In this document: positions 2,262 to 40,872 of the stretch, in pieces | How positions within the stretch are numbered: position 1 is the stretch's first letter | How the letters are laid out: every line of letters starts with the position of its first letter | NCBI GenBank assembly: GCA_050260515.1 | Contig: JBLNCI010000043.1 | Location: 79,880-143,879 of the forward strand | Direction: 5' to 3' | Source: Gemmatimonas sp. | GTDB taxonomy: Bacteria; Pseudomonadota; Alphaproteobacteria; SMXQ01 | Length of the DNA stretch: 64,000 nt | Translations under genes and position numbers: made by a program | Notes under the pieces: model-generated | Told to the model about the DNA's origin: nothing | The model's database searches: none | Seen by the model: the letters and a program-made list of their open reading frames with translations, nothing else

Positions 2262-5741
<3,480 letters not shown>

Positions 5742-34808: not shown

Positions 34809-36209
34809 CTACTCGTCCTTGTCCTTCTCCAGCTCGGCGGTGAGATCGGCGACCGCGATCTTGCGGTCCTTCACCTTGGCGAGTTCGAGAATGAAGTCGA
34901 CGACCTTGTCCTCGAAGATCGGCGCGCGCAGCCGCGCCTGCGCCTGCTGGTTGGTCTTGTAGAACTCGACGACCTGGCGCTCCTGGCCGGGGAAGCGGCG
35001 CGCCTCGTTGGCGATCGCGCGCGACAGGTCCTCGTTGGTGACCTCGATGTTGTTGCTGCGGCCGATCTCGGACAGGAACAGGCCGAGGCGCACGCGGCGC
35101 TCCGCGATGGTGCGGTACTCCTCCTGCTCCTTCGCCTCCTCCGGCGTCGCCGGCGGCTTCACCTCCTGCTCGGCATGACCGTGATCGTGGTCATGGTCGC
35201 AGTGCTCGTCGTGGACGTGACCTTCCTCGCCATGGCCGGGATTCTGCTGCTGCTTCATCGCCTGCCAGATGGTCTTGAACTCGTCGTTGACCATCCCGGA
35301 CGGCACTTCGAACTTCACCTTGTCCGACAGCGCATCGAGCAGATTCCGCTTCACGCGCTGGCGCGCGACCTGGGCGTATTCCTGGCCCAGCCGCTCGCGG
35401 ATCGCGGTCTTCACCGCGTCGAGCGTCTCGAACCCGAGCCGCTGCGCGAGCTTGTCGTCGACCGCCATCGTCGAGCGGGCGCGGATCTCCTTCACGTCGA
35501 CCTCGAACTCGGCGTCCTTGCCGGCGAGGTCCTTGGCGCCGTAGCTCTCGGGGAACTTCACCTTCACGGTGCGCTTCTCGCCCTTGCGGACCCCGATCAG
35601 TCCCTCGATGAACCCCGGGATGAATCCGGTCGATGACAGGTCGAGCTGGAAGTCCTTGGCCGAGCCGCCGTCGAAGGCGTTGCCGTCGACGCGGCCGACG
35701 AAGTCGACGAGGATCGCGTCGGTGTTCTCGGCCGGACGGTCTTCGGCGATCGCGGTGTAGGTCTTTTGCTCGTTGGCGACGCGCTGCAGCGCCTCATCGA
35801 CGTCCTTTTCGGTGACGTCGACGACCAGGCGCTCGACCTCGACCGTCGAGAAGTCGAACGGCCCGACCTCCGGCATCAGGTCGACGCGGACGGAATACTG
35901 CAGGTCGGCGCCCTCGGCGAACGACTTGATCTCGACCTTGGGCTGGGCGGCCGGCTTCAGGTTGCGGTCGGCCAGCGCCTTCTCGGTGTTCGTCGACACG
36001 GTGCGCTCGAGCACCTCGCCCATCAGCGACGGCGCGTATTCCTTGCGCAGGATAGCCATCGGCACCTTGCCCGGCCGGAACCCCGGACGCGCCACGCGCG
36101 TGCCGATCTCCTTGAGGCGGGTCTCGATCTCGGCCTCGATCTCGGCGGCGGGGACGGTAATGAGGAGCTCGCGGCTCAAGCCCTCGGTGGTGGTTTCAAC
36201 GACCTGCAT
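34809..36209 (-). CDS. tig: Trigger factor (with His/Asp/Cys-rich insertion in the C-terminal domain)
   Basis: Start at [25 protein letters not shown] (ATG 36207-36209); 466 aa; central FKBP-like PPIase region. Confidence 0.95.
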
Positions 36210-36260
36210 GGAACTCCTCGTTACGGTCTCGGCGCGCGCCTGGGACGGCGCGTCGTGCGC

Positions 36261-36345
36261 TGGTGCGGGCGGAGGGACTTGAACCCCCACGACTTGCGTC
36301 GCTGGAACCTAAATCCAGTGCGTCTACCAGTTCCGCCACGCCCGC
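36261..36345 (-). tRNA. tRNA-Leu (anticodon TAG), CCA encoded
   Basis: 85-nt class II tRNA: GCGGGCG acceptor, long variable arm, anticodon stem-loop CTGGA-TTTAGGT-TCCAG, T-loop GGTTCAAGTCC. Confidence 0.9.
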
Positions 36346-36527
36346 AAAAGCAGCAGTTCGCGGCGGCGCTCACAAGGATTTAAGGAACGCGTACGGCGAA
36401 GGTGCCCGCCCCCGCGTAGGGGCATGGGTCTTAGCATTGAAAAAGCGTCCTCGCTACCCTCTTGGCGGAGGCAAGTGGGGCCCGCCGGCCGGCCGAACCC
36501 GGCGCCGGAGAGCCGCCCCGACGCCCA

Positions 36528-36601
36528 GATACGGCAAACCCGCCGCGGGGGCACGGCGGGTCCGGAAACACAAAACCCGCCGCGCGGAGCGCGACGGGCG
36601 G
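36528..36601 (-). terminator. Two tandem GC-rich hairpins (CCCGCCG..CGGCGGG and CCCGCC..GGCGGG + UUUUGUGUUU) downstream of the 36606-36899 ORF
   Basis: Seen on minus strand; the second hairpin is followed by a U-rich tract, typical of an intrinsic terminator. Confidence 0.5.
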
Positions 36602-36605
36602 GGGA

Positions 36606-36899
36606 TCAGGCGGCGTAGGTTTCGGCGAACCGCTGGAGGGCGAGGATGCGCGGCCCCTGGGCGAGCGGCGCGCGGTCGGGGCGGCTGAAGACCACCTCGT
36701 AGCGGACGTGGGGGATGCCGAACGGGTCGTTGTCGATGGCGATGACCTTGGCGGTTTCCACGGTGCGGTCGGCGCGAACGCGGCGGTAGACCGCCCCGGT
36801 GCGGATCGCATCGAGGTCTGGCGCCTTCCGGGCGAAGCGAAGCCGGGCGAACATCGCGGTCTCCACCAACTTCAACTGCTGTTTCAACATCGACTGCAT
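36606..36899 (-). CDS. Hypothetical small protein (82-97 aa)
   Basis: Open frame with high GC3. No SD at the first ATG; GGTGGAG lies before the third Met (MFARLRF...). No recognisable domain. Confidence 0.4.
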   Translation of the reverse strand: MQSMLKQQLKLVETAMFARLRFARKAPDLDAIRTGAVYRRVRADRTVETAKVIAIDNDPFGIPHVRYEVVFSRPDRAPLAQGPRILALQRFAETYAA

Positions 36900-37129
36900 G
36901 GGAATTCGCCAAAACGTTTGTGCGTGTTATCGCGCTATCACCAGTACTTCACTTTTACAGGAGCAGCCTTTAACCACGGGTTAAAGCAGCGCCGATGTTT
37001 GACGAAAATTTTCAAGGCTTTTGCTAGTAAATCGAACCTTGCGGACGGACCTGTTCGCCCGCCTTTTTTCAGGGTGCCTGTTGCCGCCGGAACAACGCCA
37101 CGCCGAGCCGGGTTTCGGGTGCGGTTTGC

Positions 37130-38905
37130 TTAAGCGTTGGTAACTTGCTTAAGCGCTCGTAAAACCCCGGGCACGAGGTCGGGTACATCCTCGGCGATCA
37201 GCCCGGGCCCGAACGAATCCGCGGCCGCCCCGTGAATCCAGGCGCCGGCGCACGCCGCGTCGAACGGATCCATTCCCTGGGCGATCAGACCGACAATGAT
37301 CCCCGCCAGCACGTCCCCGGCCCCCGCCGTGGCCAGCGTCGGCGGCGCATTGCCATTGATGCGGGCGCGACCATCGGGATGGGCAATCACGGTATCCGCC
37401 CCCTTGAGCAGCATCACGGCACCGGTGACCGAAGCCGCCGTCCGGGCGCGTTCGAGCTTTCCGGCGGTAAGGTCGATCGTGGCGGCGCGCCGGAACAGTC
37501 GGGCGAACTCGCCGTCATGGGGCGTCAGCACCGCGGCGGGCCCGCCGCGGCGATCGGCGGCGGCCTTGAGCGCCTCCACCAGGTCCTGCGGCCGATCGGC
37601 GAACACGGTCAGGGCGTCGGCGTCGAGCACACACACCCGCCCAGCCTCGAGCGCCAGCAGGACATGGGCCCGGGTCGCCGGGGTAGCGCCGTTCCCCGGA
37701 CCGAGCAGAACGGCATTCTTGCGCGGGTCGTCGAGAAGCGCCGCAAAGTCCGCAGGATGGGCGATCGGCATCGTGAGCACACCTGCCATCGCCGCGGCGT
37801 AGATCGGGAGCGCCTCGGGCGGAGAGGCAACCGTGACGAGGCCGGCGCCGACGCGCTGGCAGGCGCGGGCCGCAAGACGCCCGGCGCCGGTCATCGCGGC
37901 GCCGCCGACGACGACCGCATGCCCTCGGCTGTACTTATGTCCGCTGAGCCTCGGCCACGGGAAGGCACCGGCCCAGAGCTCCGGCGCGTTCTCGGCTGTC
38001 CGCGGGCGGATGGTGTCGAGCATGGACTCGGGAATCCCGATATCTGCGACACGGACGTCTCCGCACAATTCCCGTGCGGGAACAAGCAGGTGGGCGGCTT
38101 TCTTGCGAAAGAACGTCACTGTTGCCACGGCACTCGGTGCGCCCTCGCCCGTGCCGAGGACGCGGCCGGTATCTCCGTGGACTCCGGACGGAAGGTCGAC
38201 GGCGATCACCGGCAGCCGCCGCCGATTCAGCTCGCCGACGACAGCCAGGGCGACGCCTTCCAGTGGACGCGTGAGCCCGGCTCCGAACAGCGCATCGACG
38301 ACGACCGCGCCCTCGGCCCAATCCAGCACGCTCTCGGAGAGCGGCACGGCATCGGCGTCGTACATGGCCGCCGCGATCGCCGCATCGCCCTTCAACGTTG
38401 CGCGGTCGCCGAGGAGCGCGACGCGGACCCGGTGCCCCGCCTCGGAGAGATGACGCGCCGCGACGAAGCCGTCGCCGCCGTTGTTGCCGGGTCCGCACAG
38501 CACGACCACCGGTCGGCCCGGATACCGTCCGCGCACGTCATCCGCCACCGCGCGCCCCGCCGCTTCCATCAGCGCGATGCCGGGCGTGCCCGCCTCGATC
38601 GTCTGGCGATCGGCTGCGGCCATGTCCGCGACCGACAGGACCTCGAGCCCGCGGACAGGCGCGGCCGGCGTTTCCACCGGCGCGGCGAAGAAGTCCTCGG
38701 GCAGCAGCGGAACCGAGGACCGCTCCGCGGCGCGCAGCACGTCCTGCTGACGGCGCGCGGGGATGGTCCCGCGCTCGTGCCAGCCCTGCACGGTCGTCGC
38801 CGGAACGCCGAGCAGCCGCGCCAGTGCCCGAATACCGCCGAGGCGGGTGATCACGGCACGCGCGGGATTGTCGTCGCGCGATCGAATGCGAGGAGGCCGA
38901 CCCAT
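37130..38905 (-). CDS. nnr: Bifunctional NAD(P)H-hydrate repair enzyme Nnr (epimerase/ADP-dependent dehydratase) with ~90-aa N-terminal Cro/YdaS-like HTH extension
   Basis: Residues ~95-591 carry YjeF-N (VLCGPGNNGGDGFVAARHL) and YjeF-C carbohydrate-kinase (KYSRGHAVVVGGAAMTGAGRLAA, AGAGDVLAGII) motifs. The N-terminal stretch reads RLGGIRALARLLGVPATTVQGWHERGTIP. ATG 38903-38905 has a strong SD AAGGGGAG. Confidence 0.85.
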   Translation of the reverse strand: MGRPPRIRSRDDNPARAVITRLGGIRALARLLGVPATTVQGWHERGTIPARRQQDVLRAAERSSVPLLPEDFFAAPVETPAAPVRGLEVLSVADMAAADRQTIEAGTPGIALMEAAGRAVADDVRGRYPGRPVVVLCGPGNNGGDGFVAARHLSEAGHRVRVALLGDRATLKGDAAIAAAMYDADAVPLSESVLDWAEGAVVVDALFGAGLTRPLEGVALAVVGELNRRRLPVIAVDLPSGVHGDTGRVLGTGEGAPSAVATVTFFRKKAAHLLVPARELCGDVRVADIGIPESMLDTIRPRTAENAPELWAGAFPWPRLSGHKYSRGHAVVVGGAAMTGAGRLAARACQRVGAGLVTVASPPEALPIYAAAMAGVLTMPIAHPADFAALLDDPRKNAVLLGPGNGATPATRAHVLLALEAGRVCVLDADALTVFADRPQDLVEALKAAADRRGGPAAVLTPHDGEFARLFRRAATIDLTAGKLERARTAASVTGAVMLLKGADTVIAHPDGRARINGNAPPTLATAGAGDVLAGIIVGLIAQGMDPFDAACAGAWIHGAAADSFGPGLIAEDVPDLVPGVLRALKQVTNA

Positions 38906-38921
38906 GCTCCCCTTATACGAT

Positions 38922-38964
38922 AAACGCGTGCGCCCGCGCGAAACGCGTGCGCCTGGCGTCCAGG
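38922..38964. promoter_or_regulatory. Operator-like repeats in the nnr/dadA divergent promoter: AAACGCGTGCGCC x2 (19-bp period) plus palindrome CCTGGCGTCCAGG
   Basis: Seen directly between the ATG of the HTH-nnr gene (38905) and the dadA start (39044). A TATATA box follows at 38990. Confidence 0.35.
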
Positions 38965-39043
38965 TTCTGGCCCAATTTCGCCGCGCCCCCTATATAAGGA
39001 GCACCTCGCGGCCGCATTCCCGGCCGACCCAAGGGACAGTCCC

Positions 39044-40297
39044 GTGAAGGTTCTCGTGCTCGGTGCCGGCGTGGTCGGCACCACGACCAGTTACGCCCTC
39101 GCTCGTGACGGCCATTCCGTCACGGTCGTCGACCGCCGCTCCGCTCCCGGCGAGGAGACGAGCTTCGCCAACGGCGGCCAGCTTTCGGCCTCCGGCGCTC
39201 GTCCGTGGGCAAATCCCCACGTGCCGCGGCTTGTCCTCAAGTGGCTCGGCAAGGCCGAGGCGCCGCTCGTGTTCCGTCCGCGTCTCGACCCGACGCTATG
39301 GCGCTGGACGATCGAGTTCCTCGCCAATTGCCTGCCGGCGCGCGCCGACCGCAACATGGCCAACATCCTGCGTCTTGCGCTGCTGAGCCGCGACGCGTTG
39401 GCGTCGATCGTCGCCGAGACGCAGGTCGGGTTCGAGCACCGCTCGCGCGGCATCCTCCACGTTTTCCGCGACAGGGCGACGTTCGACGACGCGGCCAAGG
39501 ACGCCGCGCAGTTCGCCAAGCTCGGACTGCCGTTCGAGGTGATCGAGCGCGAGCGCATCCGGCAGCTTGAGCCCGCGCTCGCCCCCGCCCTGCCCCGCCT
39601 CGCGGGGGCCACGTACTGCCCCGACGATCAATTCGGCGATGCCCATCTGTTCACGGTCGAGCTCGCCCGACGCGCGGCCGACATGGGCGTCGACTTCAGA
39701 TTCGACTGCAACGTGACCGCGATCACGGCCGATGGCGATCGCATCGGCGGCGTGCTGACCGACCACGGCAGACTCGACGCCGATCTCTACGTGCTCGCGT
39801 TCGGCAGCTATTCGCCGCTGCTGACGAGGCCCCTCGGTCTTCGCCTGCCGATCGTGCCGGCGAAGGGCTACTCGGCCACGGTGCCGATCGTGAACCGCGC
39901 CGCGGCGCCGTCGCTCTCCGTCACCGACGAGGACGCCAAGGTCGTCATCACACCGCTCGGCGACCGGCTGCGCATCGCCGGCACGGCGGAGTTCGGCGGC
40001 TACGACACGACGCTCAACGAGCGCCGCGCGCGCAGCGTGCTGATGGACGGACTCGATCTCTTCCCGGGCGCCAGCGTCGCCGAGCAGGCGACGCTGTGGA
40101 CGGGGCTGCGCCCGCTCACGCCGGACGGCGCGCCGATCATCGGCCCCTCGCCGTACCGCAACCTGCTTCTCAACACCGGGCACGGCACGCTGGGCTGGAC
40201 GCTGTCGGCGGGATCCGCGCACGTCATCGCCCGGCTCGCCGCGGGGAAGGAACCCGGCGTCGATCTCACCGGGCTGACGCTCGCCCGTTTCCGCTGA
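39044..40297 (+). CDS. dadA: D-amino acid dehydrogenase small subunit / FAD-dependent oxidoreductase
   Basis: GTG start with SD AAGGGA. N-terminal FAD fold [31 protein letters not shown]; 417 aa typical of DadA. Confidence 0.8.
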   Translation: MKVLVLGAGVVGTTTSYALARDGHSVTVVDRRSAPGEETSFANGGQLSASGARPWANPHVPRLVLKWLGKAEAPLVFRPRLDPTLWRWTIEFLANCLPARADRNMANILRLALLSRDALASIVAETQVGFEHRSRGILHVFRDRATFDDAAKDAAQFAKLGLPFEVIERERIRQLEPALAPALPRLAGATYCPDDQFGDAHLFTVELARRAADMGVDFRFDCNVTAITADGDRIGGVLTDHGRLDADLYVLAFGSYSPLLTRPLGLRLPIVPAKGYSATVPIVNRAAAPSLSVTDEDAKVVITPLGDRLRIAGTAEFGGYDTTLNERRARSVLMDGLDLFPGASVAEQATLWTGLRPLTPDGAPIIGPSPYRNLLLNTGHGTLGWTLSAGSAHVIARLAAGKEPGVDLTGLTLARFR

Positions 40298-40306
40298 CCG
40301 CTTCGG

Positions 40307-40709
40307 TCAGCGCGACGAGAGGTCGCGCTTCTTCTCCAGGTATTCGTCTCGGTTGATCTCGCCGCGCGCGTAGCGCTCCTCGACCACCGACAGGCCGCCG
40401 TGCCCGCCGTGGCGATGGAACGGACATCCGCCGTGGGTGAGCAGCCTCGTCACCGCGATCACGATGGCGATCAGGCCGATGAGAGCGAAGAGGCAGACCA
40501 CGGCGAACAGCCAGCCATGTCCGCCGTACGATCCGTCGCCCCAGCCCATCATCATGCGCGGACCGTAGCCGTACCAGCGGCCGGGGCCGTCGCCTCCGCC
40601 GGGCCCCGGACCAGGCCCCGGCCCGGGTTGCGCCAGCGCCGGACCGGCCAGCAAGGCCATGCTCAGAATCGCGCCGCCGCCCGCTTTCATCCCACTACGT
40701 AATGTCATC
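40307..40709 (-). CDS. SHOCT-domain membrane protein (signal peptide, Gly/Pro-rich segment, TM helix, CPFHRHGGHGG motif)
   Basis: Start at MTLRSGMKAGGG (ATG 40707-40709, SD GGGGAG). C-terminal EERYARGEINRDEYLEKKRDL matches the SHOCT short C-terminal domain. Confidence 0.65.
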
Positions 40710-40872
40710 ACACGTCTCCCCGGCGGAGAATCCGCCACGCGTCATCCATAGCGCGGAGCGCACAGGATCACGTTGATCCACCTCAAGCGGACCGAACCGG
40801 CCGACCGAACGCCGCCGACAAAAAAAGCGGCTCCATGGGGGAGCCGCTTTTGCGCCGCGAGGTGGTGGGCAG

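Follow-up and report, generated by a model that had tools for sequence, protein, structure and literature searches.

Nnr, the bifunctional NAD(P)HX epimerase/dehydratase, and other metabolite-repair enzymes are as a rule regarded as housekeeping proteins that are made constitutively. In the stretch of DNA analysed here (the window, 64 kb in full), the nnr gene (37130..38905, minus strand; 591 aa, ATG at 38903-38905) begins with a Cro-type helix-turn-helix (HTH), and the question that this locus raises is whether this domain is real, where it came from and what it does on a repair enzyme. The product, which we call HTH-Nnr, is a genuine fusion whose N-terminal domain belongs by fold and family to phage Cro, and its promoter contains a conserved dyad; DNA binding and autoregulation by HTH-Nnr can be predicted from these features. 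The explanation that we favour, with moderate confidence, has nnr capturing an entire Cro cassette, which would make HTH-Nnr a new candidate enzyme-repressor controlling its own gene.

In the catalytic part, the NAD(P)HX epimerase domain (YjeF_N; residues 89-293, 38027..38641, minus strand) scored 138.6 bits against TIGR00197 (cut-off 88.6), with Pfam YjeF_N PF03853 placed at residues 111-269 (129.3 bits, threshold 24.9). The ADP/ATP-dependent NAD(P)HX dehydratase domain (Carb_kinase; residues 320-565, 37211..37948, minus strand) scored 168.3 bits against TIGR00196 (cut-off 129.85), with Pfam Carb_kinase PF01256 at residues 331-565 (160.9 bits, threshold 27). The motifs GPGNNGGDG (G138-G146), HKYxRG (H323-G328) and GxGD (G528-D531) are invariant columns of our Nnr alignment (A1). 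By its domains and motifs, HTH-Nnr is predicted to be an intact bifunctional NAD(P)HX repair enzyme. It has both catalytic domains and their motifs in common with the canonical bifunctional Nnr/YjeF proteins (E. coli YjeF, T. maritima Tm0922) but differs from them in its additional N-terminal residues. An earlier reading made from the letters alone, the sequence-only reading, had put their number at about 90; Pfam placement and alignment A1 place 88 residues ahead of the canonical Nnr start. With a score of 203.7, HTH-Nnr is far under the cut-off of the E. coli-type equivalog (703), as are its unfused alphaproteobacterial relatives. The same reading had regarded a DNA-binding-type domain fused to Nnr as a non-canonical architecture. 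The Cro-type domain and an enzyme with intact motifs are present in one predicted polypeptide. We found no report in the literature of an Nnr/YjeF with its own DNA-binding or helix-turn-helix domain. An identical 591-aa protein (P0003), from a metagenome-assembled genome (MAG) on a 243-kb contig, is annotated by NCBI.

A gene-calling artefact, in which the true Nnr start is internal and the upstream frame is a separate small gene or untranslated, could find support in an in-frame GTG at residue 77 (VETPAAP...) and in the length of most Nnr proteins, 485-525 aa. The domain was present in 23 of the 120 best Nnr homologues, the remainder having 484-525 aa. Among orthologues it is strongly conserved, with the consensus NPARAIIxRFGGxRALARLLxxPxTTVQGWxERGxIPARRQ..L.AA....L.P.DFF, and the HTH-like core quoted in the earlier reading, RLGGIRALARLLGVPATTVQGWHERGTIP, is present in it. 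Against an artefact, a single uninterrupted frame was found in 23 protein clusters from independent assemblies, and the linker to the enzyme differs in length and sequence among orthologues, yet always keeps the frame. No conserved internal start or Shine-Dalgarno (SD) site was found in the orthologues. The GC fractions at codon positions 1/2/3 were 0.81/0.59/0.83 in the first 88 codons and 0.78/0.55/0.81 in the rest of the gene, and comparison with four orthologues revealed synonymous-only differences at 25-31 of the first 74 codons. NCBI also annotates the 591-aa product. Conservation, coding-type codon statistics and the confident AlphaFold domain described below make an artefact very unlikely, to the point that we give it hardly any weight, and the claim that the extension is translated holds. 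The HTH is a folded, translated and selected domain. Further internal initiation may occur besides the fusion start.

Although genuine, the fusion architecture is uncommon. A neighbour-joining tree built on the catalytic part placed most fusions in one region and a second small group (P0028, P0084) elsewhere. Among the matches listed from species-representative genomes, 1 of 80 carried the fusion (L001). Among the matches listed from a metagenome scan with a profile of the HTH plus the Nnr start (A5) there was no new Nnr fusion; all were Mic60-type or free-standing family members. Seeming matches to the N-terminus in L006, L050, L060 and L065 were discarded as tblastn over-extensions without the domain. 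A word-index protein search with the first 95 aa, which returned only two fragments of fused Nnr proteins, was too insensitive and was replaced by an exhaustive profile search. In terms of taxonomy, the Bradyrhizobiaceae assumed in the earlier reading were not borne out; the matches point to uncultured Alphaproteobacteria instead. The source MAG is labelled 'Gemmatimonas sp.' at NCBI; the taxon-labelled close relatives of the gene and the tig-clpP-clpX order point to Alphaproteobacteria, and the bin label may be wrong.

The primary structure and predicted fold of the HTH domain (residues 14-72, 38690..38866, minus strand) were compared with known families. Searched alone, the N-terminal segment did give an HTH-family match: residues 1-95 scored 65.9 bits, and the full protein 62.7 bits, against NCBIfam NF046037 ('carph-isopro', cut-off 38), with the match running from position 2 to 53 of the 54-position model. 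Matches to DNA-binding and regulator families of PHROG reached down to 1e-8. A profile built from 14 fusion N-termini (A2) and run against PDB sequences matched Xfaso1 Cro (3bd1, E=2.6e-8), P22 Cro (1rzs, 6.9e-4) and N15 Cro (2hin/6on0, 5.2e-3). The AlphaFold model of the N-domain (predicted local distance difference test score, pLDDT, 86.5) has five helices (14-21, 25-32, 36-45, 50-62 and 69-72). The top PDB matches in Foldseek were 3bd1, 5w8y, 6on0 (N15 Cro on its operator) and 2hin, with a probability of 0.97-1.00 and a template modelling (TM) score of 0.5-0.7; 1rzs (P22 Cro) was matched as well, and the best matches among BFVD viral models were YdaS/Cro-type phage proteins with TM scores up to 0.82. 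The scores against Pfam P22_Cro PF14549 (21.4-24.8 bits, gathering threshold 30.2) and YdaS_toxin PF15943 (21.5-25.3 bits, gathering threshold 30) stayed under threshold. The label 'Cro/YdaS-like' given earlier is therefore right by homology and fold and wrong by the membership rule of Pfam. The N-domain of HTH-Nnr belongs to NF046037 and, by sequence and fold, to the all-alpha Cro superfamily.

With the all-alpha phage Cro proteins (Xfaso1, N15, P22), HTH-Nnr has in common the five-helix fold and the signature G..ALA..LGV....V..W...G.IP..R with a terminal DFF/RPD-type motif. Its presumed recognition helix is ATTVQGWHER, and the third helix starts with polar T, T and Q plus basic residues, as is typical for HTHs that read DNA. 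The phage proteins have a dyad operator inside their own promoter, for which a candidate equivalent is present at HTH-Nnr. Whereas phage Cro is a phage protein of 60-80 aa, the domain examined here is the N-terminus of a 591-aa housekeeping enzyme, and its neighbourhood consists of core genes (dadA, tig, clpP, clpX), unlike the context of phage Cro. The NF046037 model names a domain and no more; its description, as far as it is visible, covers neither the operator nor the Nnr architecture, and we found no literature on the name 'carph-isopro' or on the function of the NF046037 domain. HTH-Nnr holds the only copy of the domain in the 64-kb window. In the full-length AlphaFold model (pLDDT 89.4), the Nnr body is confident and the HTH is tethered to it through disordered residues 75-84 (pLDDT <50), which lie in a flexible linker (residues 73-88, 38642..38689, minus strand) that varies in length and sequence among orthologues. 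Ahead of the HTH, a basic N-terminal arm, MGRPPRIRSRDDN (residues 1-13, 38867..38905, minus strand), contains a GRP-type, AT-hook-like motif. The arm is kept as MGRPPR(R/I)R in the close clade, is disordered in the AlphaFold models (pLDDT 41-54) and is a candidate for contacting the minor groove.

The exhaustive profile search placed the domain in a large family with 3,952 cluster representatives, 1,134 of them at E<=1e-10. Our breakdown covers the 149 listed matches beyond an Nnr-fusion fragment (P0001): 78 were under 190 aa in length, for the most part free-standing proteins some 70-130 aa long, and 71 were longer, including 53 Mic60 and 2 Nnr proteins. The recognition helix (T-T-V-Q-G-W) is near-invariant across thousands of family proteins. 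The NF046037 cut-off was passed by an open reading frame (ORF) of Azospirillum phage Cd, by the phage-type protein P0127, by the Mic60 protein P0124, by the HemD-Mic60 protein P0147 and by other Nnr fusions. The P0127 gene (L085) is divergent from a Peptidase_S24 repressor gene and lies ahead of phage genes, and at least 80 IMG/VR contigs carry a free-standing family member (L171-L250). In Azospirillum phage Cd (NC_010355), the only match in the cultured-phage database, the family ORF is unannotated (~3686-3949, equal to 1417-1680 of L251; NF046037, 56.3 bits) and divergent from the gene of the gp04 HTH regulator. P0127 and the phage Cd ORF are free-standing proteins of phage immunity regions, which HTH-Nnr is not. 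The ancestral role of the Cro-domain family is in phage switches, with the free-standing copies at the cro position.

The sequence-only reading had noticed two 13-bp direct repeats and a palindrome upstream of the gene and had considered them operator-like. The repeats, AAACGCGTGCGCC, are 100% identical, lie at 38922-38934 and 38941-38953 with a 19-bp period, and each makes up the left half and the middle of an ACG-N7-CG(T/C)-type dyad 15 bp long. The proposal thus survives for the repeats, as half-sites of dyads. The palindrome CCTGGCGTCCAGG (38952..38964) is specific to the window, not being conserved in the orthologous loci L081, L082, L084, L167 and L168; we dropped it as an operator, and it probably lies outside the system. 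The first dyad, O1 (38916..38930; gene strand CACGCGTTTATCGTA, plus strand TACGATAAACGCGTG), fits the pattern YACG-N7-CGTR and lies at -25 from the ATG. A weaker dyad, O2 (38935..38949; gene strand CACGCGTTTCGCGCG), is centred 19 bp upstream of O1 and has CGC, not CGT, as its right half. At the O2 position a CACG(T/C)..GCGC element is retained in the close clade, and in the fusion clade of the window a second copy of the left half occurs 19-21 bp upstream of the O1-type site. A -10-like hexamer, TATAAG (38912..38917, minus strand), shares its first two bases with the last two of O1. Its end is 6 nt from the start codon, which makes a leaderless or almost leaderless transcript probable. An SD-like sequence, AAGGGGAG (38907..38914, minus strand), immediately precedes the ATG, and from it the earlier reading had argued for the start at 38905. 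The sequence is indeed there and is absent from most orthologous loci, which makes the argument weak; given a probably leaderless transcript and the lack of SD conservation, it would matter little.

The dyad pattern, which superseded a looser first test (pairs of NACGNNN 7-mers 9-20 bp apart), was then counted upstream of the different types of gene. YACG-N7-CGTR was found at 8 of 10 Nnr-fusion loci, always at -21 to -28 from the ATG, and at none of 78 unfused nnr loci (Fisher 7e-10 against the fusions, uncorrected for relatedness). Nine of 14 free-standing metagenomic loci carried it, as did 59 of 76 distinct viral loci, against an expectation of 0.044 per 150 nt; in this viral set all 53 distinct sites read TACG...CGTA. 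At Mic60-type or internal loci the count was 1 of 20, the lone match being a viral contig. An eleventh fusion locus, L253, has aACGTGTTACACGTA (aACG-N7-CGTA) after TTGACG. Unfused loci in which dadA and nnr are arranged as in the window lack the dyad.

When the ten Nnr-fusion upstream regions were compared, they fell into two groups whose intergenic DNA is otherwise unalignable. In the distal group (L001, L083, L169, L170), TTGAC(A/C) is followed after 3-5 nt by a dyad such as TACGTATTATACGTA, whose right end runs into a -10-like TACAAC/TACAAT, with the ATG 6-9 nt later; for L169, promoter prediction returned TTGACC-16-TACAAT, which ends 6 nt ahead of the start codon. In the group of the window, CACGCGTTTATCGTA or close variants run into TATAAG, and at HTH-Nnr the -35 position is occupied by O2. 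The free-standing genes are built alike, with CCACGTTGAC, 4-5 nt, TACGy-N5-rCGTA, a -10 element and the ATG about 6 nt later. Upstream of the phage Cd ORF, the dyad site TACGTGAAAAGCGTA fills the -35/-10 spacer of TTGACG-17-TATGGT, which ends 6 nt before the ATG. The retention of the dyad at a fixed distance from the ATG in two fusion clades whose flanks have diverged argues for ongoing selection. A sigma-54 reading of TGCACG..TTGC, made by eye, was dropped owing to wrong spacing.

The capture that we propose would have brought a promoter, an operator dyad between -35 and -10, a start codon a few bases past the -10 and a Cro-fold HTH frame, the last joined in-frame to nnr via the flexible linker. 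From their co-occurrence, the T-T-V-Q-G-W helix would read TACG-N7-CGTA. Nnr enzymes oligomerise, and two tethered HTH domains of an Nnr oligomer could bind O1, which overlaps the -10-like TATAAG. O2, the weaker site, lies 19 bp further upstream and faces almost the same side of the helix; it would probably be bound too. Judging from this geometry, binding at O1 would block RNA polymerase and nnr would repress itself. A separate pair of Nnr proteins carries N-terminal HTHs with different helices. P0028 (575 aa) is of the classic YdaS/Cro type and under the NF046037 cut-off. P0084 (L252) is above it; with the helix QSSISGW in place of TTVQGW, it lacks the TACG-N7-CGTA dyad and has the promoter TTGCAT-N17-TATAAT with CCATATTATAATGG. 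The helices of this pair suggest that nnr has captured or exchanged Cro modules repeatedly.

Several observations weigh against self-repression through a captured operator. A sigma-70 consensus scan of 38500-39300 found no promoter, and no -35 element is recognisable in the clade of the window; the fusion promoter of L001 also fails the sigma-70 consensus rule. O1 deviates from the phage consensus at two positions, with C for the outer T and T for the inner purine, O2 is without a proper right half, and in L081 and L082, out of ten fusion loci, the right half-site is degraded. In phylogenetic terms the fusions are few and stand for some two or three lineages. The pattern used to collect the viral loci fixes the recognition helix, which biases any family-wide claim; as HTH-Nnr has that helix, these loci are still the right comparison for its domain. 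In phage switches a CI-type repressor usually shares operators with Cro, so that co-occurrence of the dyad alone does not identify the binder. In addition, the commonest partner of the Cro-type domain among the matches listed is Mic60, and TACG-N7-CGTA was upstream of 0 of 11 N-terminal Mic60 fusions, so the domain may serve something other than operator binding.

This last point leads to the idea that the HTH no longer binds DNA and is a protein-protein, localisation or structural module, the dyad being a relic or the target of another protein, for instance a CI-type repressor or a free-standing family member whose gene lies elsewhere. Mic60 accounts for 53 of the 71 long family members, 13 of them also with HemD, and the dyad is missing upstream of the Mic60-type genes (L088-L090, L094-L096, L101, L107 and L108). 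The NF046037 domain is the N-terminus of many alphaproteobacterial Mic60 proteins (P0124, P0138, P0139, P0147, P0160, P0175, P0205 and others), where a linker and one hydrophobic segment come after it, so that it should face the cytoplasm; in HemD-Mic60 fusions it stands between HemD and the membrane anchor. These proteins have the same domain and the T-V-Q-G-W..RG.IP..R motif as HTH-Nnr. Unlike in HTH-Nnr, the domain in Mic60 precedes a transmembrane segment, a coiled coil and a mitofilin domain, with no dyad upstream. A published description of Mic60 mentions the transmembrane segment, coiled coil and mitofilin domain only, and not the NF046037 domain; we found no literature on a helix-turn-helix in Mic60.

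HTH-like domains that do not regulate are known: in RodZ the HTH serves MreB, and HppE and MPnS are enzymes with HTH-like N-domains. HppE and MPnS were among our fold matches, and a near-invariant recognition helix would fit a conserved protein partner equally well. RodZ, HppE and MPnS resemble HTH-Nnr in having an XRE/Cro-like helical N-domain on a larger non-regulatory protein, but they have no cognate operator at their own promoters, whereas HTH-Nnr has a conserved candidate one. Loss of DNA binding also fits poorly with a dyad whose spacing from the ATG has stayed constant across two fusion clades that have diverged, with the T, T, Q and basic residues of the third helix, and with the absence of the dyad at the altered-helix fusion P0084. 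No CI-like repressor gene adjoins the fusion loci. Taken together, we consider a non-binding role unlikely, if worth keeping in view, and continue to prefer self-repression by HTH-Nnr.

The HTH might also mainly regulate other genes, namely the divergent dadA or a wider D-amino-acid, B6 or NAD regulon. The divergent neighbour (39044..40297, plus strand) is a dadA-like D-amino acid dehydrogenase gene; its earlier dadA label is upheld by NF001933 (509.6 bits, cut-off 383). A dadA-like gene of the DAO family, complete or cut by the contig end, lies divergently upstream in every fusion locus with enough upstream sequence, across an intergenic region of merely about 120-140 bp that contains further conserved blocks (TTATATAGG, GGCCAGAAC). 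Clustering of Nnr genes with those for alanine racemase and vitamin B6 has been reported (PMC5938422). On the other hand, O1 and O2 abut the nnr start and lie about 95-130 bp from the dadA start, and dadA and nnr are paired without fusion or motif elsewhere: head-to-head pairing was found in four unfused loci as well. L013, L040, L041, L070 and L168 are among the loci, fused or unfused, with this pairing. Within the 64 kb, the exact repeat GCGCACGCGTTT had no other copy at 0 or 1 mismatch and the dyad was not enriched (6 found, 4.6 expected), leaving no sign of a regulon there; at least two of the five other dyad matches (25745, 25762) are inside long ORFs. Control chiefly of other genes thus seems distinctly improbable.

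As for the intergenic DNA itself, the block CTATATAAGG (38980..38989; gene strand TTATATAGG) is kept in all six close-clade loci and is possibly the -10 region of the divergent dadA promoter. In 38966-38989 and the equivalent regions of L081, L082, L084, L167 and L168, TTATATAGG and CTCGGCCAGAAC (gene strand) form conserved blocks, which may be dadA promoter or regulator sites. In L168 a PNPOx-family gene lies beside nnr, echoing the B6 clustering (PMC5938422).

HTH-Nnr can be set beside the enzymes that regulate their own genes. PutA joins a ribbon-helix-helix domain to proline dehydrogenase, BirA a winged HTH to biotin ligase, and NadR, in pyridine-nucleotide metabolism, an HTH to nicotinamide mononucleotide adenylyltransferase/ribosylnicotinamide kinase. 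Archaeal RbkR is a further enzyme-repressor fusion (PMC5397151). Each of these is a metabolic enzyme that carries an N-terminal DNA-binding domain and whose own promoter has a binding site, and HTH-Nnr is alike, its site being a predicted one. HTH-Nnr differs from these in that the fold is that of phage Cro, the enzyme repairs damaged metabolites and the cassette looks recently captured from a mobile element. As an extension of self-repression, occupancy of the enzyme by NAD(P)HX, ADP or NAD(P)H could shift the Cro domains on O1/O2, which would make HTH-Nnr a damage-sensing trigger enzyme; we raise this as a speculation and think it rather doubtful.

Some features of the surroundings were noted in addition. 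Between nnr and the tRNA-Leu/tig pair lies a small ORF (36606-36899, minus strand; probable start 36854, 82-97 aa). It has no match in NCBIfam, the sole library tried; its identity to the small gene in the equivalent position is 78% in L082 and 52% in L083. A similar-sized gene is called at this position in nearly all fusion loci, and the ORF looks like a real conserved gene. The tRNA-Leu gene (anticodon TAG; 36261-36345, minus strand) is just upstream of the trigger factor gene (34809-36290, minus strand) and overlaps the longest possible tig ORF, so that the real tig start is probably further in. An Rfam search of 36200-39200 detected this tRNA only; the repeats at the nnr promoter are thus no known RNA element. 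Downstream of dadA, a small glycine-rich, membrane-type ORF (40307-40738, minus strand) has a SHOCT-like end, YARGEINRDEYLEKKRDL, and no NCBIfam match; next to dadA, L081 and L168 have a gene called as 'SHOCT (weak)'.

HTH-Nnr adds a candidate to the short list of enzyme-repressors, with a concrete 15-bp candidate site at 38916-38930. The capture of a phage Cro promoter, operator and reading frame together would be a route to an enzyme-repressor in a single step. Were the enzyme to sense damage in the way considered above, HTH-Nnr would set the transcription of nnr, and perhaps of dadA, by the level of damaged cofactor, and would act as a transcription factor responsive to a damaged metabolite. 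The dadA neighbourhood ties to the question of a second, B6/D-alanine-linked role of Nnr (PMC5938422). The predicted code, TTVQGW reading TACG-N7-CGTA, would extend to a large family of phage regulators in Alphaproteobacteria that is so far uncharacterised. Should it also hold for Mic60, the Cro domain borne by that protein would tether a homologue of the crista organiser in bacteria to TACG-N7-CGTA DNA, and the presence on Mic60 of a cytoplasmic Cro-like domain that has gone undiscussed may interest the fields of intracytoplasmic membranes and the origin of cristae.

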